Shown here piece after piece: positions 1,976-44,271 of a stretch of 44,271 bases of DNA (position 1 is its first letter; the number at the start of each line of letters is the position of its first letter). The DNA comes from a virus. Taxonomy: Duplodnaviria > Heunggongvirae > Uroviricota > Caudoviricetes. The translations under genes and the position numbers were made by a program. The DNA lies in IMG/VR virus record IMGVR_UViG_2565956725_000004; one strand, given 5' to 3'. Below the pieces are notes generated by a model, which saw nothing but the letters and a program-made list of their open reading frames with translations, searched no databases and had not been told where the DNA came from.

Positions 1976-2992
1976 TCACTTTTGTTTTAGCTTTATAATT
2001 TCTGATATCATAGTTGTTAGCTTTGAATCGGAAAGATTCTGCAGTCTATCTTTCTCAATAGAAACTGTAGTTTGTCCCTTTTCTAATATGAAATTTCTTT
2101 CTGTTTTCATTAAAAGCATTGCCAACTCTTTTATCATGTCTTCGTTCTTGAATTCTTGAGCATATTTTAGAGACATGACTTTCATCTCAATATTTGTGAT
2201 TTCATTCTGAAAATATTTGATTTCGTCAAACCCATTTTTATAGAGGCGTAGAAAAAAATAAGCAAACAATTCAACGACTATTACAAATGATAATTTAGGA
2301 AGGTGATGAATAAAAAATCCCACCCCATCCACAATGTCTGGCGCGCTGTAAAGAAAGTAAGCAAGAGATAATATCCCTGTCAACGCAATTATTGTTCCGA
2401 TTGCAAGGTTAAGCCCACCTCGTCGATTGAGTCTGTCTATTTCAGACTCTAATCTTAGAACCATATCAGTATGGAGTTTATGTAAGCTGTAGCTCTTCTT
2501 AAAATCAGATATATCGCTTTTTAGGCTGTTATCTGCCAGAAGTATTGTGTTTCCAATTATTCTCTTTTTTGCATCGGATATTAACTTCTCCCTTTCACTC
2601 TCTGTTATTTCAATGGAAACTCCGGAAGATGTTCTATTTTCAATTTCGCTCAATTTTTTATTTAGCTTAACTATTTCTTTGTGAAAAATATATCTCGTGT
2701 TTTCAATATCTCTACCACCAATTCCTTTGTTTAAATAAGAAGTCATTATTGCGACAAAAGAACCAACAAAAACTAGGGCAGTTGCTGTAAATAAAATAAA
2801 CTCTTTCTTCTCGTTTATTAAATTTACTATTGATGATGATTCCAGTTGAATGTCTGAAAGCGAAGTTTTAAGCACAAAATTCATCACAGGTGAAACCATG
2901 ATTATGGCAACAACTATAATAAATCCATATTTTTTTATAATGTAAATAAGAAGACCAAATAAATCTTTCATTTTATCTTTTACCTGAAACAA
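1976..2992 (-). CDS. Hypothetical multi-pass membrane protein with coiled-coil segments (moron, possible phage exclusion or abortive-infection protein)
   Basis: 338-aa ORF with about four hydrophobic helices separated by Lys/Glu-rich predicted coiled-coil regions; strongly A+T-rich codon usage unlike flanking phage genes; flanked by A+T-rich non-coding DNA. Confidence 0.6.
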   Translation of the reverse strand: MFQVKDKMKDLFGLLIYIIKKYGFIIVVAIIMVSPVMNFVLKTSLSDIQLESSSIVNLINEKKEFILFTATALVFVGSFVAIMTSYLNKGIGGRDIENTRYIFHKEIVKLNKKLSEIENRTSSGVSIEITESEREKLISDAKKRIIGNTILLADNSLKSDISDFKKSYSLHKLHTDMVLRLESEIDRLNRRGGLNLAIGTIIALTGILSLAYFLYSAPDIVDGVGFFIHHLPKLSFVIVVELFAYFFLRLYKNGFDEIKYFQNEITNIEMKVMSLKYAQEFKNEDMIKELAMLLMKTERNFILEKGQTTVSIEKDRLQNLSDSKLTTMISEIIKLKQK

Positions 2993-3344
2993 ATTTTTAT
3001 TAAAGTAACTTAAAAAATGATTGATTGCAAGATTTACTATTGCTGTTCATTTTAAATTACTATACCCCCCTATGCATACATATAATCCCATAGGGGAGAA
3101 GTTTATTAGTTAGTTAAGTTGAAGGCTATACCTACAATCTAATTCCCCTCCAACCTAACATGCACAAGCGTCAACCTATCGGTAGTGATAATTTTATGAG
3201 GATACGTATAAACAAGATTCTGAGTTGCTCCTATTCATTAAGACAATACATTTTGTAACTTCTGCTTTTGGCTCAGGGTGGGGTGTGAGATTAGGTTTGG
3301 CTCTGTGCCATAGATGTGTCAGTTCACATCTGAGCTAATACACA

Positions 3345-3539
3345 TTACTCAATCACTCCAGCAAACCTATATATCTTGTGTGACGCCCATTTATTTGGGC
3401 ATGATTTAATATCAGGATCTGGAAAATCAGGCCTGTATTTCTGGCCAGTTCTCCAGTTTACGCTGTTCCAGCGAAGAACTGTCGATACTGAAACGCCACA
3501 GAAGTCGGCGACTTGTTTAGTTGTCATTAAGTTGTTCAT
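3345..3539 (-). CDS. xis: Excisionase / AlpA-TorI-like small DNA-binding protein
   Basis: 64-aa ORF with HTH-like segment (TTKQVADFCGVSVSTVLRW); positioned between integrase and early-left genes. Confidence 0.7.
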   Translation of the reverse strand: MNNLMTTKQVADFCGVSVSTVLRWNSVNWRTGQKYRPDFPDPDIKSCPNKWASHKIYRFAGVIE

Positions 3540-4159
3540 TACTTCACCTCCTGCGGCGGTTCCGGTAGCGGCATCCAGTGGGTTACTTTCGATGCCGGTT
3601 CTTCCACATCGTCAGTAACTGCCCACCATTTGTTTCTCGACCAATCGTAATACCCTTCGAAGGTATCGCACTCAGTCCAGCCGTAAGACTTCCCCCAACA
3701 CCAAACATACTGTTTATCGTTCGGCATTCGCTCACTACAGCTTATCCAACCATCCGGAGTTACCGGAGAGTTGCCCGACAGCTCGTTCAACTTGTAAGTC
3801 TGGCTTACAGGTTCGGCACCATGAAGCATGGCGGTGCGGCAGGAGTTCCAGCCTTCATCAAAGCCGACTATGCCATTATTTAAAGACGGAAGACCATCCG
3901 GCACCACCGACACTGGCTGAGCCATATATAGCGGCTGAACATACCAGCCCTTTGATAACCAACTGTCAGCAATGTTTTTGCTCCTGGTTATTGCCGGAAT
4001 ACCTAAGCCATTGTCTGAATGCAGCCACGCCAACGGCTCTGCTTCCAGTGATGCCAGAGCAATTTCATAAGCACGGCGCTCAACATTGTCTCGCACGTGC
4101 AGGCTGCCGATTCGTTCTTTGATTTCTTTAATCAGTTCCTTATCGGTGAAAGTGGTCAT
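3539..4159 (-). CDS. Phage protein, DUF551-like C-terminus
   Basis: 206-aa ORF ending in the WMPLPEPP motif that I recall as the DUF551 signature; stop overlaps the xis start. Confidence 0.55.
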   Translation of the reverse strand: MTTFTDKELIKEIKERIGSLHVRDNVERRAYEIALASLEAEPLAWLHSDNGLGIPAITRSKNIADSWLSKGWYVQPLYMAQPVSVVPDGLPSLNNGIVGFDEGWNSCRTAMLHGAEPVSQTYKLNELSGNSPVTPDGWISCSERMPNDKQYVWCWGKSYGWTECDTFEGYYDWSRNKWWAVTDDVEEPASKVTHWMPLPEPPQEVK

Positions 4160-4521
4160 TATGCCCCAGCCTCCGGTGCTTTTGGCATTACTGCCCAGTG
4201 AGTGATATTGACGTTTTCAAGGTCCCCGACCTGAAATGTCCACTGCCATTCTCCGGTTTCTTTTTGTCCCCAGGTGTACCAGAGAGAACGCCAGCCAATC
4301 AGCCAGCCTTCTCCGTTAGTATCAAATAACAGAACACTTTCATTTGCTGGTGGAAGTTCAACTGACACTGGTATTACTTTGTTTTCCAGTGCCGCACATT
4401 TAGCTTCAAGCGCATCGAATTTACGTACCAGATACTCAGCATTTGTTTCATTCACTTTCAGATCTCGCGGTACACATTTCCCGCGAAGAAACCCTTCCAT
4501 TTCGAAAACATTCATGCGCAT
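4159..4521 (-). CDS. Hypothetical phage protein (YfdS-like size and position)
   Basis: 120-aa ORF contiguous with neighbouring early-left genes; Trp-rich C-terminal half. Confidence 0.5.
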   Translation of the reverse strand: MRMNVFEMEGFLRGKCVPRDLKVNETNAEYLVRKFDALEAKCAALENKVIPVSVELPPANESVLLFDTNGEGWLIGWRSLWYTWGQKETGEWQWTFQVGDLENVNITHWAVMPKAPEAGA

Positions 4522-5048
4522 TTGCGTAACTCCGATAACTCGTTAAAACGTTCCATAAACATCCCATAGGCATGGCCTGGCGACAGTGGAATAACTTTGA
4601 ACATCTCTGTTGCCGGGATACCTTCCAGTACAGGCCAGAAAGAGCCATCATCAAGCCCGAGATCGCGGCGTTCGGTTGCCAGCATGATGAGATCGGCATA
4701 TTTCACAGGCGTGCTCATAACCGGGGGTAACCCGTATTTCTCACGGATTACGGCGTCTATTTTTTCTTCCATCCGTTTATAGTCAGGAAGAAGGCGTTTC
4801 AGTGGCGCGGGGATGTCCTGGCAATACGCTTCTGTTGCATCATGCATTAACGCTTCAAAAGCAAATTCCTGCGGCACCAGCTGGCTGCAAAGCACCGCAT
4901 GCTGGGCGACGCTGTAGAAGTGTGAAAGATGTCCTGCAAAGCGACAGATATTTGAAAGGGAAACCGCGATATCGTTAATCACGATGTCGTCTTTATTTAT
5001 CCTGTCATAATAAAAATGCTTCCCGGAAAAAGTTTTAATAAATGACAT
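4512..5048 (-). CDS. yfdR: HD-domain phosphohydrolase (YfdR-like 5'-deoxynucleotidase)
   Basis: HD-type motifs (FAGHLSHFYSVAQHAVL ... MHDATEAY); start taken at the internal Met (MSFIKTFSGKHF) preceded by a GGAG ribosome-binding site, giving 178 aa. Confidence 0.8.
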   Translation of the reverse strand: MSFIKTFSGKHFYYDRINKDDIVINDIAVSLSNICRFAGHLSHFYSVAQHAVLCSQLVPQEFAFEALMHDATEAYCQDIPAPLKRLLPDYKRMEEKIDAVIREKYGLPPVMSTPVKYADLIMLATERRDLGLDDGSFWPVLEGIPATEMFKVIPLSPGHAYGMFMERFNELSELRKCA

Positions 5049-5175
5049 TTTGTTCTCCACGTATATGTGCTGCACCACGCTGAATTCTGGTAAAAGGAAG
5101 CCCTCACCATCCGGTGATTATTGAGTTAATTACGTTTCCATAAATGCCCCCGCAGGGGCATTTGCAGTAATGAAA

Positions 5176-6000
5176 TCAGGCGGTGAAAGTACCAATAAAG
5201 GTTTCTACTTTGCTGTCCTTGAATTTCTCAACAAGCAGATCACGAAATTCGTTAGCCATTTCCTCCTGCACTGCTTCCAGCTGAATAATGCGCAGAACCA
5301 GTACAGGACGATCGCCAGTGAGAATGCTGAGGCGTAATTTAAACGGACGTTCTTTCAGGCCTTCAAACGGAACGCATTTAAATTCAAATGCCACTGGCAT
5401 AATGTCTTTGGTTTTCGCTTCGACAGACTCCATCAGGGAGCGTTTGCCGCTGAAGTCATTGTCTTCAAAATCAGCGGTCTGGTTTGCTTCAATCGTGATT
5501 TTACGGACTGCCGCAGCCGCTTTTGTTGCCTGAATAGCGTCACCATTAGCATCAAAGCCCACAAGGTAGTCGGCCCAGTCTTCAATCCATTCTGCCAGTG
5601 ACTTCTGGGAGTTACGCTCGCCGTTAACAGACAACAGGGCAGAGAACGGTGCTGTCTTTTTCAGTTTGAGAGTGGCGGTGTTATCTGCGTGACCTGGTTC
5701 ATCAATAGTACCCAGGTTAAGTACACTGACGGCACGCATATTATCAGCATCGATAAAGCAGCGGGTGCCTTCATCTGCAAGATCTTTAGAATAACGGGTA
5801 AAGTCATCGATGCTGGCAGTGGAAAGCGCACCACGGAAACGGAAGCGATTTAAATTAAATTTTTCCAGATCATGAATGAGGAAATTCTCGGGCAATGCCA
5901 CAGCATCGGCACCAATCTTACTGATAATTTCATTAACACCCTGAGCAGAAATAAGGGCATGGATTTGATTAATTGCGGTTGCGTCTAAGTTCTGAGACAT
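5176..6000 (-). CDS. yfdQ: YfdQ-family (DUF2303-like) prophage protein
   Basis: 274-aa ORF; length and sequence character match the remembered CPS-53 YfdQ. Confidence 0.7.
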
Positions 6001-6065
6001 AATAAGTCCTCACTATATAAAGATATTCAGTGATGAGATAAATAATCAGTTAATTAAGAACGATA

Positions 6066-6428
6066 TTAATGACCTGCTGCGCGTAGTTTTCCGTCAGGTT
6101 CACCGGCAAGAGTCAGTAATTGTCCCTGGTCTTCCTGCAGAATAGTCAGACGACCACCGCGATTGACATACATCGGCGTTTCGGTGGTGTCTTCTTCGGA
6201 AATTTTCCCGCGGTTAGTCGGGCGAACATATGAGAGTTTGTGTTTGATTTTCACACGGTTCTCATCAAATGGTTCGATTTCCAGGTTGAGTGAGACCTTA
6301 CCTTTGGTTTTCGTGTTCATCACACCGGAAGCGACTTCACTGAGAACTGCGCCGATTTTGGTTTCAAATACGCCGCCGTCCAGCTCCCCGATAAATGCCT
6401 GCACATCAGTACTGCGTTCGCTAGCCAT
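6066..6428 (-). CDS. Hypothetical phage protein (YfdP-like position)
   Basis: Start placed at the internal Met (MASERSTDVQ) at 6428 because AGGAG lies 7-12 nt upstream; the longer ORF-track extension to 6746 has no ribosome-binding site and improbable composition. Confidence 0.6.
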   Translation of the reverse strand: MASERSTDVQAFIGELDGGVFETKIGAVLSEVASGVMNTKTKGKVSLNLEIEPFDENRVKIKHKLSYVRPTNRGKISEEDTTETPMYVNRGGRLTILQEDQGQLLTLAGEPDGKLRAAGH

Positions 6429-6896
6429 TTTGCTGCTCCTCATCATATCGACCCTGCAAGGTCGGTTGGTTTCTCCACAAAACAGAGAAGAACACCTGCG
6501 GTGGCAGCCGCCCGGATGGATTGGGTTATGAGCCCGTCGTCCGGTGATGCTCTTCTCTGTTTTGTAAAAAGAGCGGTACCAGCCGGAAGCAAGGGTACAA
6601 GCTGGTACCGCCAGGACTACACACAGCATAAAGTTGTGGTGCCGGGTGCCTCCCGGTGCCTGGCGAAGGTTGCACACCAGGCGGGTGGGTATCCACAGAA
6701 GGTCGACTGTCAGCCTCAACCTTAACCCGCGTGCGCTGAGCCGCATTCACCACAACGCTAAGGATTCTCTCTGGTTGAAAATACTTAGCTGTTATGTGCC
6801 TGCTTTTAGCCACATCAGGCGAGGTGGGCCTGGTTATTCCCCAACAACAAGGATTCGGCTAATCTGGATGACTCTGTTCTTAGAGGGGATAATTAA

Positions 6897-7409
6897 ATGG
6901 GAGCGATTTATGTTAAACGTTTGATTCTGTCGGTAGCACTGATAATACCGATAGCATCCAATGCTTCTGATGCTTTGAACCAGCCGAGCAGTAGTCTAAA
7001 TGATGGTGTTGAGACTTTTTTTATTTCCTGCTTTGATATGCCTCAGGAAACAACTACTGATATGGACGCTTGTCAGAGAGTTCAGTTAGCTCAGGTTAGT
7101 TGGGTTAAGAATAAGTATTCGGTGGCCGCCCTGAATCGTTTGAAACAAGACAACAAGGATGATCCACAGCGTCTGCAGGAATTAACTGCTTCTTTTAACG
7201 CGGAAAGTGAAGCTTGGACAGAATTAATTGAGAAAGCGTCAAAGTCCGTCCAGGTTGATTATGCAGGAGGAACTATAGCTGGCACTGCAGTTGCATCACG
7301 TCAAATTGGTCTTCTGGAATTACAATCCCACGATATCTGGGAGCACTGGCTACGATTCGAGGACTCAACTCCTCCTCTTTTGCCAGAACCAAAGTTCAAA
7401 TCTGAGTAA
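6897..7409 (+). CDS. Secreted or periplasmic moron protein (possible DUF1311/LprI-like)
   Basis: 170-aa ORF with N-terminal signal-peptide-like hydrophobic segment; transcribed against the flanking leftward operon; followed by a strong terminator. Confidence 0.55.
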   Translation: MGAIYVKRLILSVALIIPIASNASDALNQPSSSLNDGVETFFISCFDMPQETTTDMDACQRVQLAQVSWVKNKYSVAALNRLKQDNKDDPQRLQELTASFNAESEAWTELIEKASKSVQVDYAGGTIAGTAVASRQIGLLELQSHDIWEHWLRFEDSTPPLLPEPKFKSE

Positions 7410-7435
7410 TAAGTCATCCAGATTGTTAAAGAGCG

Positions 7436-7459
7436 AAGCGTCCTATAGGGCGCTTTTTT
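7436..7459 (+). terminator. Rho-independent terminator after the secreted moron gene
   Basis: 8-bp stem AAGCGTCC/GGGCGCTT (one G-U) with TATA loop, followed by a T-run. Confidence 0.6.
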
Positions 7460-7633
7460 GTTGCTAACGAATCATCCTGGACTTCATATGCCCCAGGCGG
7501 CTACTTCGTGGTCGTCCTGACTGTTCGTTTTTGACATTTACTGACCGCTTACGACACATGCACCATGCACCGTGTTGCAACCAGATTTTGTTGTAATCCT
7601 GTAGTTGGTCTGGAACAAAAGATAAAATTAAAA

Positions 7634-38700: not shown

Positions 38701-39212
38701 GCGGTAACGTGAACGCGAACTCCGGGACGCTCAACAACGTCACGATTAATCAGAACTGTCGGATTCTGGGAAAACTGTCAGCTAACCAGATTGAAGGTGA
38801 TATTGTCAAAACGGTGGGAAAAGCCTTTCCGAGAAATGGCAGTTATGCCAGCGGTACAATAACGGTCACTGTGTACGATGACCAGGCTTTTGACCGTCAG
38901 ATAGTAATCCCCCCCGTTCTGTTTCGCGGTGGTAAGCATGAAAACTTCAACAGCAACAACCAACAGTCATACTGGTATTCAACCTGTAAGCTGCAGGTGC
39001 TGAAGAACGGACAGGAAATCTTTCAGCAACCCGCGACGGATGTCAGCAGGGTATTTTCATCAGTCATTGATATGCCTGCCGGACACGGCCATGTCACCCT
39101 GACTTTCAATGTTTCTTCATATGGTGCTAATAACTGGACGCCAACGACCAGTATCAGCGACCTTCTTGTTGTTGTGATGAAGAAATCTACAGCTGGTATC
39201 AGTATCAGTTGA
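35730..39212 (+). CDS. J: Host specificity / central tail fibre protein J
   Basis: 1160-aa ORF, N-terminal and central regions lambda-J-like; C-terminal receptor-binding region not compared. Confidence 0.95.
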
Positions 39213-39264
39213 ATTTTATAACCCAGATACGGGTGCCAGAAATGGCGCCTTTTTTATTTGTGGA

Positions 39265-41331
39265 GTGAATATGGCAGTACAGATTTCAGGCGTGCTGAAA
39301 GACGGTGCAGGAAAACCGATACAGAACTGCACCATTCAGCTCAAAGCAAAACGTAACAGCACCACGGTTGTGGTGAACACGGTGGCCTCAGAAAATCCGG
39401 ATGAAGCCGGACGTTACAGCATGGATGTCGAGTATGGCCAGTACAGCGTTATCCTGCTGGTTGAAGGTTTTCCGCCTTCACATGCCGGGACCATCACCGT
39501 GTATGAGGATTCTAAGCCGGGGACGCTGAATGATTTTCTGGGTGCCATGACGGAAGAGGATGTCATGCCGGAGGCATTGCGTCGTTTTGAGGTAATGGTG
39601 GAGGATGTGGCACGCAACGCTGAAGCCGCCTCTCAGAGCGCAGCGGCAGCAAAGAAATCAGAAACAGCAGCGGCATCGTCCAGGAACGCGGCGAAAACAT
39701 CAGAGACGAATGCAGGTAACAGCGCGAAAGCGGCAGCTTCTTCAAAAACAGCCGCACAAAACGCAGCAACAGCGGCAGAACGTTCAGAGACAAATGCCCG
39801 TGCGTCAGAAGAAGCCTCCGCAGACAGTGAAGAGGCTTCCCGCCGTAATGCAGAGTCAGCCGCTGAAAATGCCGGAGTCGCCACCACAAAAGCGCGGGAG
39901 GCTGCAGCAGACGCAACAAAGGCCGGGCAGAAAAAGGATGAGGCTCTGTCGGCAGCGACACGAGCTGAAAAGGCGGCAGACCGCGCAGAAGCCGCAGCGG
40001 AAGTGACTGCAGAGCCCTATGCGAATATAGTGCCGCCGCTGCCTGATGTGTGGATACCGTTTAACGATTCACTGGATATGATTGCGGGTTTTTCTCCGGG
40101 CTATAAAAAAATAGCTATTGGTGACGATGTGGTTCAGGTCGCCAGTGATAAACAGGTTAATTTCAGTCGCGCATCAACGGCAACATATATCAACAAATCT
40201 GGCGAACTGAAAACGGCGGAAATTAATGAGCCGCGATTTGAGTGTGATGGCCTGCTTATTGAGGGACAAAGAACGAACTACATGCTCAATTCGGAAAGTC
40301 CAGCCAGCTGGGGGAAGTCATCAAACATGGATGTGCCCGAAACCGGGACGGATAGTTTTGGTTTTACTTATGGAAAGTTTGTCTGCAACGATTCTCTGGT
40401 TGGGCAAACTTCGGCTATTAATATGGCATCAATTGCTGCAACAAAGTCAGTTGATGTCTCAGGCGATAATAAGTACGTGACAACCTCATGCCGTTTTAAA
40501 ACAGAACGACAGGTAAGGTTACGTATACGGTTTGATAAGTATGATGGTAGTGCAACAACTTTTCTTGGCGATGCGTACATTGATACGCAAACGCTTGAAA
40601 TTAATATGACAGGTGGTGCTGCCGGCAGAATTACGGCACGAGTCAGGAAGGATAAGACCACAGGCTGGATTTTTGCAGAGGCAACGATTCAGGCAATTGA
40701 TGGTGAGTTAAAAATAGGCTCTCAGATACAGTATTCTCCTGAGCGGGGTGGGGCAACAGTATCTGGTGACTATATTTATCTTGCCACCCCACAAGTAGAG
40801 AATGGGCCGTGTGTATCATCATTTATTATTTCAGGAGGCAGCGCAACGACAAGAGCCAGTGATTTGGTTAGTATCCCCACCAGAAATAATCTTTATAAGT
40901 TACCATTTACTTTTTCACTTGAGATTCATAAAAACTGGGATATTGCACCAAACGCCGCACCCCGCGTGTGGGATATAGCAGCAGCCAATACCGGGCAATC
41001 AGCAATTGCAGCAATCAACAGAGGTAGTGGTAAGTTATATATGAGTCTGTCAAACCCTTCAGGCTCGTATGTTAATAGCGCAGCGACAGATGTATTTGCA
41101 GAGAAAACCACATTTGGATGTATTGCAAAAGCTGATGGTTACTTTCATGTGGTGACAAATGGTAAAGCGGTTAATGAAGTTTATTGTGAATATAATGGCG
41201 TGACCGCTGATAAAAATATCCGATTTGGAGGGCAGACGAATACTGGAGAACGACATCTGTTTGGCCATATTCGCAATTTCCGCATATGGCATAAAGAATT
41301 AAATGACAGGCAATTAAAAGAGGTCGTATGA
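39265..41331 (+). CDS. stf: Side tail fibre protein (lambda Stf-like N-terminus, Ala-rich shaft, divergent C-terminal lectin-like domain)
   Basis: N-terminus MAVQISGVLKDGAGKPIQNCTIQLKAKRNSTTVVVNT matches lambda Stf; C-terminus (HLFGHIRNFRIWHKELNDRQLKE) resembles LamG/concanavalin-like domain endings. Confidence 0.8.
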   Translation: MNMAVQISGVLKDGAGKPIQNCTIQLKAKRNSTTVVVNTVASENPDEAGRYSMDVEYGQYSVILLVEGFPPSHAGTITVYEDSKPGTLNDFLGAMTEEDVMPEALRRFEVMVEDVARNAEAASQSAAAAKKSETAAASSRNAAKTSETNAGNSAKAAASSKTAAQNAATAAERSETNARASEEASADSEEASRRNAESAAENAGVATTKAREAAADATKAGQKKDEALSAATRAEKAADRAEAAAEVTAEPYANIVPPLPDVWIPFNDSLDMIAGFSPGYKKIAIGDDVVQVASDKQVNFSRASTATYINKSGELKTAEINEPRFECDGLLIEGQRTNYMLNSESPASWGKSSNMDVPETGTDSFGFTYGKFVCNDSLVGQTSAINMASIAATKSVDVSGDNKYVTTSCRFKTERQVRLRIRFDKYDGSATTFLGDAYIDTQTLEINMTGGAAGRITARVRKDKTTGWIFAEATIQAIDGELKIGSQIQYSPERGGATVSGDYIYLATPQVENGPCVSSFIISGGSATTRASDLVSIPTRNNLYKLPFTFSLEIHKNWDIAPNAAPRVWDIAAANTGQSAIAAINRGSGKLYMSLSNPSGSYVNSAATDVFAEKTTFGCIAKADGYFHVVTNGKAVNEVYCEYNGVTADKNIRFGGQTNTGERHLFGHIRNFRIWHKELNDRQLKEVV

Positions 41332-41606
41332 AAGATTTAACTTTGAAGTTTCATGACTAACTGCAGTTTAAGGCCTTCCTGTCATCTCTTGGCTGGGCGG
41401 AAGATGAAGACCTCCAGAATAAACTGTTAGTTGATGAAATTGGTTTCACCTACACAGAAACAGGGGTAACAGAAGAGGGAGAACCTGTCTGTATCCGGAA
41501 TGATGGTTATTTTGTCAACATTCGCATTCTTGATGACTTGTTTGATGTTTCTGTATTCTCTGATTATGTCGTGGAGCTGGAAACACCGCTTCGGGAATGG
41601 AGCTGA
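41328..41606 (+). pseudogene. Small ORF interrupted by an in-frame TAA after codon 10 (possible nonsense-inactivated gene)
   Basis: ATG at 41328 overlaps the stf stop (ATGA); TAA at 41358..41360; the same frame stays open for 81 more codons to TGA 41604..41606 with no internal ATG. Confidence 0.4.
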
Positions 41607-41618
41607 AAGGAGGAAATA

Positions 41619-41912
41619 ATGGATATAAGCCCCTTACTTCATGCACTTTGTGCTGTGGCTGCGCAGATACTGGTTGGTCTTTTTACCGGAAACTGGGCTT
41701 ACGGAGCGATAGCCGGTTGTACGTTCTTCATTGCGCGTGAACATACCCAGGCAGAATATCGCTGGATTGAAATGTTCGGGCATGGCAAGCGAATGAATAT
41801 GCCGTGGTGGGGTGGTTTTGATCCGCGTGCTTGGGATGTGGCAAGCCTGATGGATTTTGCTGTGCCGGTGGTGGCGTGTCTGCTGGTCTGGGTATTTATC
41901 CGTTCAACATAA
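41619..41912 (+). CDS. Hypothetical small inner-membrane protein
   Basis: 97-aa ORF with strong AAAGGAGG ribosome-binding site; hydrophobic helices at both ends. Confidence 0.55.
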   Translation: MDISPLLHALCAVAAQILVGLFTGNWAYGAIAGCTFFIAREHTQAEYRWIEMFGHGKRMNMPWWGGFDPRAWDVASLMDFAVPVVACLLVWVFIRST

Positions 41913-42387: not shown

Positions 42388-44271
42388 TTACTCCTGAATT
42401 CCTGGTAATACTTCCGGTATAATGGTAATTGGGTTTTGGGATGGGGAGATTTCAAATGGGAAAGTCGTACGCTCAAACAATGGTGAGACTATATCAACTT
42501 TAAGCTTAAGCTGTTGCTCAGTAGATTTATTCGTTAATTTGAATACTGTTGCATCAACCCCGATGGTAGATCTAGCTAGTGTATCAAGTTCTTGATCGCT
42601 ACTGTTCAATGTCATTTCAAGCATCACTGGTGTCAACATAGCACCGAGCTTCATACGAAGGAGACGATCTTCATCGACAAACTGATTTGGAGCCGTATGA
42701 TTTAAGGCATCATAAATATCATTATAACACATTGCAAGTTCTTTCTGAGTTTTAGCATCAAATCCAGCAGCTTCTAGTGCAGCACGATCTGGTTTTCCAG
42801 TTCCAATTTCTTCTATCGTCCCGTAATAGTTTTCAATTGCTCCTCGACGTAAAAAAAAGCACCCAAGATTACTTAATGCCTTCAAAAGCACATTGTATTT
42901 TCTACAAAGACTTTCGGCTCGAGAAGATGCTTCTGTACCAAAGCTTGTTGGATCAGTAAGAATACGAGCTAACGTCACGCGACGTTTGCTATCAGCCCCA
43001 GAATCTTTACTTGACCAATTAGGATAACTTTCAGCTGCTATCTCAACCTCTTCCTTAAAGTCAGTCATGAAGGTTGTAATTTCTGCACGCAAATCTCTGT
43101 CAAGATCAGCGAGACTTGTTCTTCCGACTTGGTCTGCAATCGCCCTAGCTTCTGTTAATCCACTGAAATAGTTGACTAAATTATTATCGTCAGCTAAGGC
43201 GTCGAGATCTGCAAGCAAACTAACTCGTTTATTCATCAAGCGAAACAGTTTGGCAGCTTCGATAAACTCTCCCTTACCAGTAACTGGAAGTATCTGAGCA
43301 TTACGTGCAAGGAGACGGAGACCGAACTTTCTTGCAAGTTGTGTTACTATTATTTCATCACTAGGACCTTCGACTAATAAAACATGCTCAGCGAACATAG
43401 CTGTTCGATGGGTAGCGCTAAGGCGTGCTATTAATGCGGCCAGTTTTGTGCTGCAAAGAATATCTGCATTTTTTGGTATCTGAACTGGAGGTTGCTGTGC
43501 GGAGTTGAAAAAGATTATTTTTGATAACTCTTCAATTCGTCGCAGCGGTAGTATTGAAGGTGAATGTGTCGCTATGATTATCATTTTTTTCTTTGGATTT
43601 TGAGGATCACCGGCTACCAGTTCCATCTCTTCGAGCAGAAATGCTTGATGCTGTGGGTGTAGGGAGATTTCTGGCTCATCGATAATCAATGCACCTATTT
43701 CGTCATTATGAATTGCAGTTAGTAACGAGACAACCTGCAGTATACCGCTGGCTTCGTGATTAGCTGCGTAGCCATCGCCGCCAGTGACGGATGTTATTCT
43801 AATAGTCATTCCATTTTGAGACCACTTGAGCTCAACGCTTCGATCAAACAACTGCTGTAGGCGTGCTTCAATCTTTAGTTTGAGGTCTGGTCTCTGGTCT
43901 AAGATCATTAAGTCACCAGTAACACTTTCATAATTCCACCATTGCTCAACGTAACTCGCGTTTCCAATAGCAGCATCGCTAGAATTGATGCCATAAGGAG
44001 AATCTGAGCTAGATCTATAGGATTCAAATGGACTACACCGTCCTGCCGAAAGAAAATGTACTTTTCTATTTTGTCCAATTATTCGGTTTTCACTCAATAA
44101 TTTTGATTTTATTGCACGCAGTGCTCGGGTTTTACCACTACCATTTGGCCCGACCATCGTTGTAATACCTGGTCCGACTTGTATTATCGCTTTTGTGGAT
44201 GAATTATCGACTAATGAATATTCAACGTCCATCGGCCACATAAGGTCTTGATCTGCAGTATCTAAGCTCAT
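42388..44271 (-). CDS. OLD-family nuclease (N-terminal ABC-type ATPase, C-terminal Toprim domain); N-terminus at window edge
   Basis: Walker A GPNGSGKT, Walker B ALIIDEPEISLHP, ATHSP, then Toprim-like LLVEGPSDE and DLDALADD; A+T-rich codon usage; the ORF reaches the last base of the window, so the true start is unconfirmed. Confidence 0.8.
   Translation of the reverse strand: MSLDTADQDLMWPMDVEYSLVDNSSTKAIIQVGPGITTMVGPNGSGKTRALRAIKSKLLSENRIIGQNRKVHFLSAGRCSPFESYRSSSDSPYGINSSDAAIGNASYVEQWWNYESVTGDLMILDQRPDLKLKIEARLQQLFDRSVELKWSQNGMTIRITSVTGGDGYAANHEASGILQVVSLLTAIHNDEIGALIIDEPEISLHPQHQAFLLEEMELVAGDPQNPKKKMIIIATHSPSILPLRRIEELSKIIFFNSAQQPPVQIPKNADILCSTKLAALIARLSATHRTAMFAEHVLLVEGPSDEIIVTQLARKFGLRLLARNAQILPVTGKGEFIEAAKLFRLMNKRVSLLADLDALADDNNLVNYFSGLTEARAIADQVGRTSLADLDRDLRAEITTFMTDFKEEVEIAAESYPNWSSKDSGADSKRRVTLARILTDPTSFGTEASSRAESLCRKYNVLLKALSNLGCFFLRRGAIENYYGTIEEIGTGKPDRAALEAAGFDAKTQKELAMCYNDIYDALNHTAPNQFVDEDRLLRMKLGAMLTPVMLEMTLNSSDQELDTLARSTIGVDATVFKLTNKSTEQQLKLKVDIVSPLFERTTFPFEISPSQNPITIIPEVLPGIQE

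Follow-up and report, generated by a model that had tools for sequence, protein, structure and literature searches.

A probable recent nonsense mutation in a small gene overlapping the side tail fibre gene of an Escherichia coli lambdoid prophage

The side tail fibre locus of the prophage

The window analysed here, a stretch of 44,271 nucleotides (nt) deposited as IMG/VR virus record IMGVR_UViG_2565956725_000004, is a complete lambdoid prophage. Downstream of its side tail fibre gene stf lies a short open reading frame (ORF), designated ORF-A, which is interrupted by an ochre codon; it is followed by ORF-B, which encodes a small membrane protein (Table 1). The locus is 100% identical to that of the prophages of E. 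coli F11, ECONIH2, Combat2C1 and others, with the integration site between yjjG and prfC. Sequence comparison with relatives makes it very probable that ORF-A is here a recent, lineage-restricted null allele, which arose by a single transversion converting the Lys-11 codon AAA to TAA at position 41358.

Gene J ends at position 39212. The most likely start of stf is the ATG at 39271, which gives a protein of 686 amino acids (aa) as annotated for phage 21, and not the GTG at 39265, which gives an ORF of 688 aa. The stf stop codon TGA (41329–41331) is overlapped by the ATG of ORF-A (41328–41330) in the arrangement ATGA. A preliminary description of this DNA, made from the sequence alone, had reported a frame starting over the stf stop, the peptide MKDLTLKFHD, the TAA and 81 further open codons, as well as a very strong ribosome-binding site in front of a 97-aa membrane protein, and all of these were found again in the sequence. 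Its statement that the open codons contain no internal start holds for the first 60 codons after the stop and fails beyond them, the first canonical in-frame starts being TTG at 41538 (codon 71) and then GTG at 41571. By chance, 81 codons would stay open with a probability of about 0.02; the real evidence that the two segments form one gene is homology rather than this statistic, because the relatives have a single gene of 92 codons at this place.

A terminator-like hairpin with a T-run is located between J and stf (39231–39250), and in phage 21 it is annotated as a terminator; stf, ORF-A and ORF-B would therefore depend on antiterminated read-through. No promoter-like site was found on the + strand between stf and ORF-B. 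The RefSeq annotation produced by PGAP cuts stf in two: the N-terminal part is labelled as an 'incomplete' pseudogene, and a second coding sequence is named 'phage head spike fiber domain-containing protein'. This split is an annotation artefact, since the window shows one uninterrupted frame with the length of phage 21 stf.

Table 1 Features of the locus downstream of gene J (positions in the window)
Feature	Coordinates	Strand	Basis or remark
stf, side tail fibre, 686 aa, intact	39271..41331	+	continuous ORF; phage 21 stf has equal length and is ~98% identical
ORF-A, 5' piece: ATG and ten codons (MKDLTLKFHD), then ochre stop	41328..41360	+	read from the sequence
Premature TAA (ochre) of ORF-A	41358..41360	+	T at 41358; intact relatives have A (AAA, Lys-11)
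Rest of ORF-A: 81 sense codons and natural TGA (41604-41606)	41361..41606	+	still open; equal to the mEp460 allele
Shine-Dalgarno sequence AAGGAGG of ORF-B, 5 bases upstream of ATG	41607..41613	+	sequence; ribosome-binding site annotated in phage 21
ORF-B, 97-aa membrane protein, 3 predicted helices, phrog_1443, intact	41619..41912	+	last gene of the conserved late/tail block

The ochre allele of ORF-A

In phage 21 and mEp460, a single 279-nt coding sequence occupies exactly the position of ORF-A, and a three-way alignment showed that its codon 11 is AAA (Lys). Over positions 41328–41606, the window differs from mEp460 solely by A→T at 41358. The nonsense mutation suggested in the preliminary description was thus borne out: intact homologues in related prophages have a sense codon at this place and contain both segments in one frame. 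Among 34 loci with the surrounding 48-mer, the position is occupied by A in 31 and by T in three. A probe of 57 base pairs (bp) centred on 41358 was searched against 5,426 complete E. coli genomes. It matched perfectly (100%) in 22 genomes, whereas 559 records differed from it by one or two mismatches (95–99%); the TAA is thus present in 22 of the 580 genomes that the probe matched. Across 701 bp, 17 complete genomes are 100% identical to the window.

In the strains JNE25-003 (Japan) and A24 (Mexico), a prophage of this type at the same site next to prfC carries an intact 279-nt ORF-A, and they match the window prophage in the ORF-B protein, the downstream nuclease gene and the prfC flank. The existence of these intact sister prophages at the same site indicates that the mutation arose inside this prophage lineage. 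The null allele is young, since the mutant ORF-A carries no second lesion. The TAA allele was also detected in a second, phage-21-like prophage carrying sitABCD in RIVM_C029670 and EC36. The sit-prophage of RIVM_C029670 equals the window between 39000 and 41644, with divergence to either side, whereas that of EC36 equals it from 41141 to 41812 only and diverges outside this tract. These different end points point to two independent gene conversions between co-resident prophages. Most other TAA carriers seem to keep the sense codon in a second copy of ORF-A.

Apart from the general possibility of such errors, nothing speaks for a sequencing or assembly error as the origin of the TAA. The T at 41358 recurs in 22 complete genomes, which were sequenced independently and come from several countries and hosts, as well as in one IMG/VR contig. 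In three genomes, two different prophages carry the TAA. This replication across many independent assemblies already refutes an error, the probability of which is practically nil. The lesion in ORF-A is an ordinary case of recent pseudogenisation, i.e. of prophage decay in a single lineage of E. coli prophages. In other respects the prophage seems complete, because the F11 annotation calls the remaining genes intact apart from the split stf and one frameshifted small hypothetical gene.

Translation of the interrupted ORF-A would end at the ochre stop after a peptide of ten residues. The 81 codons downstream, with no Shine–Dalgarno sequence or canonical start at their beginning and without the conserved first β-strand, would give essentially no functional ORF-A protein. 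In the alignment of homologues, M1, D3 and F8 never vary, and K2, L4, T5 and L6 hardly do; strand 1 comprises residues 2–8 in the AlphaFold2 model of ORF-A (predicted local distance difference test score, pLDDT, 88.7). Readthrough of the stop codon had been considered less likely in the preliminary description, and this was borne out. As a programmed event, it would decode the TAA usefully and still produce the 92-aa protein in a regulated manner. The 81 codons past the stop have remained open and unchanged, and with C as the following base, UAA stands in its weakest context in E. coli. UAA is, however, the most efficiently terminated stop codon in this species, a sense codon for K, N or R occupies position 11 in every aligned homologue, and the stop is limited to near-identical sequences in the 22 genomes. 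In addition, the codon is AAA in the sister prophages found at this site, and ARAGORN found no tRNA in the 44-kb window and hence no suppressor tRNA. We therefore consider such recoding extremely improbable.

PGAP and RefSeq place a CTG-initiated 81-aa coding sequence (WP_029404370.1) right after the TAA in F11, BH100N, RIVM_C029670 and EC36. According to this annotation, made identically in all four genomes, ORF-A might function as a shorter protein, possibly by termination–reinitiation, as ribosomes ending at 41360 would sit beside the CTG. E. coli initiates very poorly at CTG, though, and no Shine–Dalgarno-like sequence was found upstream of the CTG at 41361. The product would lack residues 1–11, which include the nearly invariant MKDLTLKF of strand 1. 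Moreover, no natural homologue begins there, and the full-length matches of the exhaustive profile search described below start at profile position 1. A functional protein of this kind is very unlikely. RefSeq thus masks the ORF-A pseudogene behind a CTG-start 81-aa 'hypothetical protein' and splits the intact stf. As a consequence of these errors, automated predictions of prophage integrity and host range would be wrong at this locus in this uropathogenic-type group of E. coli.

ORF-A as a candidate accessory of the fibre tip

ORF-A of mEp460, which is one base away from the window sequence, matches phrog_1361 over residues 1–91 of 92 (E 3.2e-42). The window ORF-A belongs to this family by profile and position and lacks the uninterrupted frame of about 85–110 codons, being a pseudogene. 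The intact gene has 92 codons and encodes an acidic protein of 10.7 kDa (isoelectric point 4.2). Homologues were found by tblastn in 147 phage records, which comprise lambdoid phages of the Jouyvirus type, Drexlerviridae (tonn, KarlJaspers), Dhillonvirus, Queuovirinae (JenP1) and T5-like Demerecviridae (IrisVonRoten). A homologue of 110 aa is encoded by the Vequintavirus JeffSchatz (hhalign probability 98.65%). An exhaustive hidden Markov model search of 1.84 billion representatives returned only 88 members of the family, nearly all of them stand-alone proteins of 85–110 aa, and no domain fusion of ORF-A to a fibre protein was found among these representatives. A few PKD-repeat-rich proteins of 1,300–2,700 aa match the profile in several short stretches, which is probably compositional or repeat noise; two such matches span about 75–80 residues outside the PKD domains. 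Scans of ORF-A and ORF-B against Pfam, NCBIfam and PADLOC gave nothing above noise, and PDB sequence searches with both family profiles gave no match.

In all 15 loci that were dissected, ORF-A lies directly past the fibre gene and its start overlaps the fibre stop (as ATGA, TAATG or GTGA), and the fibre upstream ends with ...HLFGHIRNFRIWHKELxDxQLKExV. In JeffSchatz, the ORF-A start is the last annotated base of the fibre gene. The ratio of nonsynonymous to synonymous substitution (dN/dS) of ORF-A is 0.13–0.41, and between lambdoid clades without a distal-fibre gene the synonymous sites are saturated at a dN of about 0.28. These values indicate that ORF-A is a real gene under purifying selection. 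In PhiR55_1 and IdasGreatGrand, an extra gene for a protein of 227–234 aa (3319–4002 and 3298–4002 of the respective stretches) lies between ORF-A and ORF-B, so that the order is stf, ORF-A, short distal fibre, ORF-B. The inserted gene of PhiR55_1, the only copy scanned, matches tail-fibre PHROGs and by sequence resembles S74-type intramolecular chaperones (IMC).

The fibre protein Stf is composed of a lambda-Stf-type N-terminus, an Ala-rich coiled coil, a middle part resembling the head spike fibre of a gene transfer agent (GTA) and a lectin-like (LamG/galectin-like) C-terminus. The N-terminus matches Pfam PF08400 (E 5.8e-69) and, as a lambda-type match, PDB 9e7m; the middle domain matches NCBIfam NF048003 (E 1.2e-14) and the Rhodobacter GTA head spike fibre (PDB 6tb9, E 1.4e-9). 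The different, lectin-like fibre end noticed in the preliminary description was confirmed in substance. The match of the C-terminus to Pfam Laminin_G_3 (E 1.2e-4) is under the gathering score and gives weak support, and better support comes from the last 159 aa, which are 46.6% identical to the C-terminus of IrisVonRoten Gp22. In the model of Humolli et al. (2025, PMC11990801), the latter forms a galectin-like domain.

The absence of a chaperone similar to the tail fibre assembly protein (Tfa), which had also been noticed, was upheld by all approaches used. In the window, tblastn with lambda Tfa gave a best E of 0.69, Pfam matches to Caudo_TAP and Peptidase_S74 (PF13884) were found neither in Stf (688-aa ORF) nor in ORF-A or ORF-B, hhalign was negative, and the PGAP annotation of the identical F11 prophage contains no tail fibre assembly protein. 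ORF-A thus lies at the Tfa position of a window that has neither Tfa nor an S74 IMC, and the interrupted gene is a better candidate for a fibre accessory than ORF-B.

The comparison of two vequintaviruses is instructive in this respect. Up to the tip, the fibre of JeffSchatz shares 87% identity with rV5 gp41, and the product of the downstream 196-aa gene is 100% identical (stretch 2200–6018). In rV5, the tip is of the S74/IMC type and ORF-A is missing, whereas JeffSchatz has a lectin-type tip and ORF-A. This swap suggests that ORF-A is part of the tip cassette, its alternative at this locus being an in-cis chaperone, and consequently that it acts on the tip in trans. ORF-A would be a small, acidic protein of the cytoplasm whose translation is coupled to that of fibres with the cassette of GTA-spike-like and lectin-like domains. 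Judged from sequence and gene context, it may be a trans-acting accessory of the fibre tip, most likely an assembly factor and possibly a bound cap, with a role like that of Tfa and no relationship to it; we regard the case for this function as about evenly balanced. A still broader proposal, which we consider possible and somewhat short of probable, is that ORF-A represents an unrecognised class of trans-acting accessories (chaperone or tip cap) for GTA-spike-like and lectin-like fibres in at least six siphovirus and myovirus lineages, interchangeable with Tfa and S74 chaperones yet unrelated to them, that the F11-lineage prophage is its natural knockout, and that ORF-B is a pan-phage inner-membrane protein which accompanies receptor-binding genes and has a conserved target in the envelope.

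Several points weigh against an accessory role of ORF-A and against its complete loss in the window prophage. The identity of ORF-A does not track the identity of the last 150 fibre residues (90% vs 42% for ev203 and 50% vs 80% for KarlJaspers), which is unlike a tightly co-evolving chaperone–client pair. Correlations between ORF-A and parts of the fibre are weak (Spearman 0.17–0.32), with counter-examples that have mosaic boundaries at the stf/ORF-A junction. Humolli et al. (PMC11990801) modelled the IrisVonRoten fibre without using gp23, the ORF-A homologue. Fold searches were uninformative, BFVD returning uncharacterised phage proteins only, and a literature search by accession or family name found no paper on ORF-A and no experiment on any homologue. 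As judged from the sequence, low-level reinitiation at the CTG or readthrough of the UAA may occur, and a co-resident prophage with intact ORF-A might complement the lesion in trans. Because of the weak correlations and the clear counter-examples, co-evolution was dropped as evidence for the function of ORF-A. Virion proteomics of rV5 was unusable for this purpose as rV5 has no ORF-A, and the papers on the branched fibres of DT57C were set aside since these are S74-ended fibres of another type.

Alternatively, ORF-A might connect a second, distal S74 fibre to the first one; it would then be a functionless remnant in the window and its mutation would be neutral. An S74-domain gene does come after ORF-A in many virulent phages, and an S74 or distal fibre gene is the next one in KarlJaspers, IrisVonRoten, JenP1, tonn, PhiR55_1 and two further prophages, and the distal Gp24 of IrisVonRoten was modelled as attached to the proximal Gp22 (Humolli et al., PMC11990801). 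However, the lambdoid clades without a distal-fibre gene have kept ORF-A intact through the saturated synonymous change described above, and the sense codon is kept in the 559 records. The JeffSchatz gene following ORF-A encodes the 196-aa distal tail protein which rV5 has without ORF-A, so that ORF-A is not there to serve that gene. A connector is therefore rather unlikely.

As a putative tip accessory, ORF-A resembles lambda Tfa, P2 G and Mu U (Caudo_TAP) in being small, in lying directly past the fibre gene with a start–stop overlap and in being exchanged together with the tip; the lambda tfa start is the last base of the 3' ORF of stf. Unlike Tfa, it shows no sequence or profile similarity to this family (hhalign probability 0.1%, no Pfam match), is half the size and has a different fold in the predicted structure. 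The client tip would be a lectin-like sandwich, whereas Tfa-type proteins serve an interdigitated trimeric tip. The S74 IMC known from T5 pb1, K1F endosialidase and rV5 gp41 is the alternative state of the ORF-A locus in rV5; it acts in cis and is cleaved off, whereas ORF-A is a separate polypeptide without S74 similarity. A close arrangement is gp22-gp23-gp24 of IrisVonRoten (Bas32), in which gp22 is homologous to Stf and gp23 is an ORF-A homologue (49–50% identity) with the same stop overlap. IrisVonRoten differs from the window by its intact gp23 and by the distal T-shaped fibre gp24, in place of which the window has ORF-B.

If ORF-A is needed for the fibre, virions of the F11-type prophage would probably have defective side fibres or none. 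Infection would still proceed through J, for which lambda PaPa provides a precedent. Lambda PaPa reportedly carries a frameshift in stf, as is said to have been described by Hendrix and Duda in 1992. The frameshift is also mentioned in two later papers (PMC11990801, PMC11338833). In both cases there is a point lesion in a lambdoid side-fibre module, an expected fibre loss and viability through J; in contrast to lambda PaPa, stf of the window is intact, the lesion lies in the coupled small gene, and the fibre loss is inferred. Similar damage was found elsewhere. The plaque-forming Lambda_4C10 has three 'mobile element protein' genes within the 3' part of stf (4848–7514 of its stretch), which we read as an IS66-family element, and its ORF-A and ORF-B downstream of the insertion are intact. 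According to BLAST coverage, 4A7, 1W and 3W probably carry the same insertion. A24 has frameshifts in J and stf. The damage to stf in Lambda_4C10 and A24, together with lambda PaPa, makes it plausible that the side-fibre module is dispensable.

The conserved, translationally coupled 92-aa partner accompanies a large group of coliphage lateral fibres, including those of BASEL collection phages. Fibres of this type could serve in engineered lambda particles, and tip grafting may then need ORF-A alongside, as is practised with Tfa. The F11-type prophage offers a natural ORF-A knockout and, with JNE25-003, phage 21 and mEp460, near-isogenic material.

ORF-B and the distal end of the locus

ORF-B matches phrog_1443 over the full length (E 1.6e-57; 577 clusters) and contains the invariant H8, REHTQAEYRWI and MPWWGGFD. 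An alignment of 17 sequences, which range from Escherichia to Aeromonas and Comamonas, has 32 invariant columns. AlphaFold2 predicted helices at residues 4–23, 26–52 and 74–96 (pLDDT 87.3). No lipobox was found in ORF-B, since HALC is unfitting and Cys11 is replaced by A, I or S in the alignment, and neither PADLOC defence models nor BFVD gave a match. ORF-B would still be made from the Q-antiterminated late transcript despite the stop in ORF-A, because it has its own strong ribosome-binding site and Q antitermination in lambdoid phages suppresses Rho polarity.

The preliminary description had placed this membrane protein in the stead of a tail fibre assembly chaperone. This does not hold: ORF-B is an independent, widely distributed module and no chaperone substitute. 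Its homologues lie directly past various receptor-binding genes, often with a start–stop overlap, such as the P22-like tailspike gene of JEP4 and P2-like fibre genes of Leclercia and Aeromonas prophages. It also lies between tailspike genes on a 160-kb Salmonella contig, past a J-like gene in a Comamonas prophage, directly past a Tfa-like gene in phiHAP-1 (Hapunavirus) and, in the plasmid-prophage PhiR41_1, past stf and ORF-A. One copy was found in an Aeromonas chromosome at a place that belongs to no prophage. Across genera, ORF-B is 60–70% identical whatever the neighbouring fibre type. This conservation speaks for an envelope target that is itself conserved and against a receptor-matched exclusion factor.

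In the P22-like JEP4, ORF-B is located between the tailspike gene and int; P22 carries its gtr genes at the matching position. The Cor/Llp cassettes and gtr operons are receptor-linked exclusion or conversion genes past receptor-binding genes (PMC13164509). ORF-B is similar to them as a small envelope protein directly past receptor-binding genes and bordering variable cargo. Unlike Cor/Llp, it has no lipobox, shows three helices instead of a lipoprotein fold and is not receptor-matched. An envelope-modifying or exclusion-type role is proposed only tentatively. ORF-B as a lysis holin was rejected, as genes for a lambda-family holin, an endolysin and a spanin-like lysis protein are already present elsewhere in the prophage. 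Comparison also led us to reject rV5 gp29, a membrane protein past the fibre gene, as an ORF-B homologue. The two conserved post-fibre gene families, phrog_1361 and phrog_1443, are a by-product of moderate interest.

The homology between the window and phage 21 stops at about 41891, just inside the 3' end of ORF-B, and beyond this point the cargo differs in each phage. In the window, the cargo gene past ORF-B (42388–44271, − strand, running off the window end) encodes an OLD/GajA-like ATPase-nuclease (PADLOC GajA E 5e-22, Old E 9e-18), named 'ATP-dependent nuclease' by PGAP; no adjoining GajB-like partner is present in the F11 annotation. Far upstream, at about 6467–6777 (− strand), another small hypothetical prophage gene bears a frameshift flag set by PGAP. 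At the cargo position past ORF-B, phage 21 carries sitABCD, and mEp460 passes straight to dinI and int.

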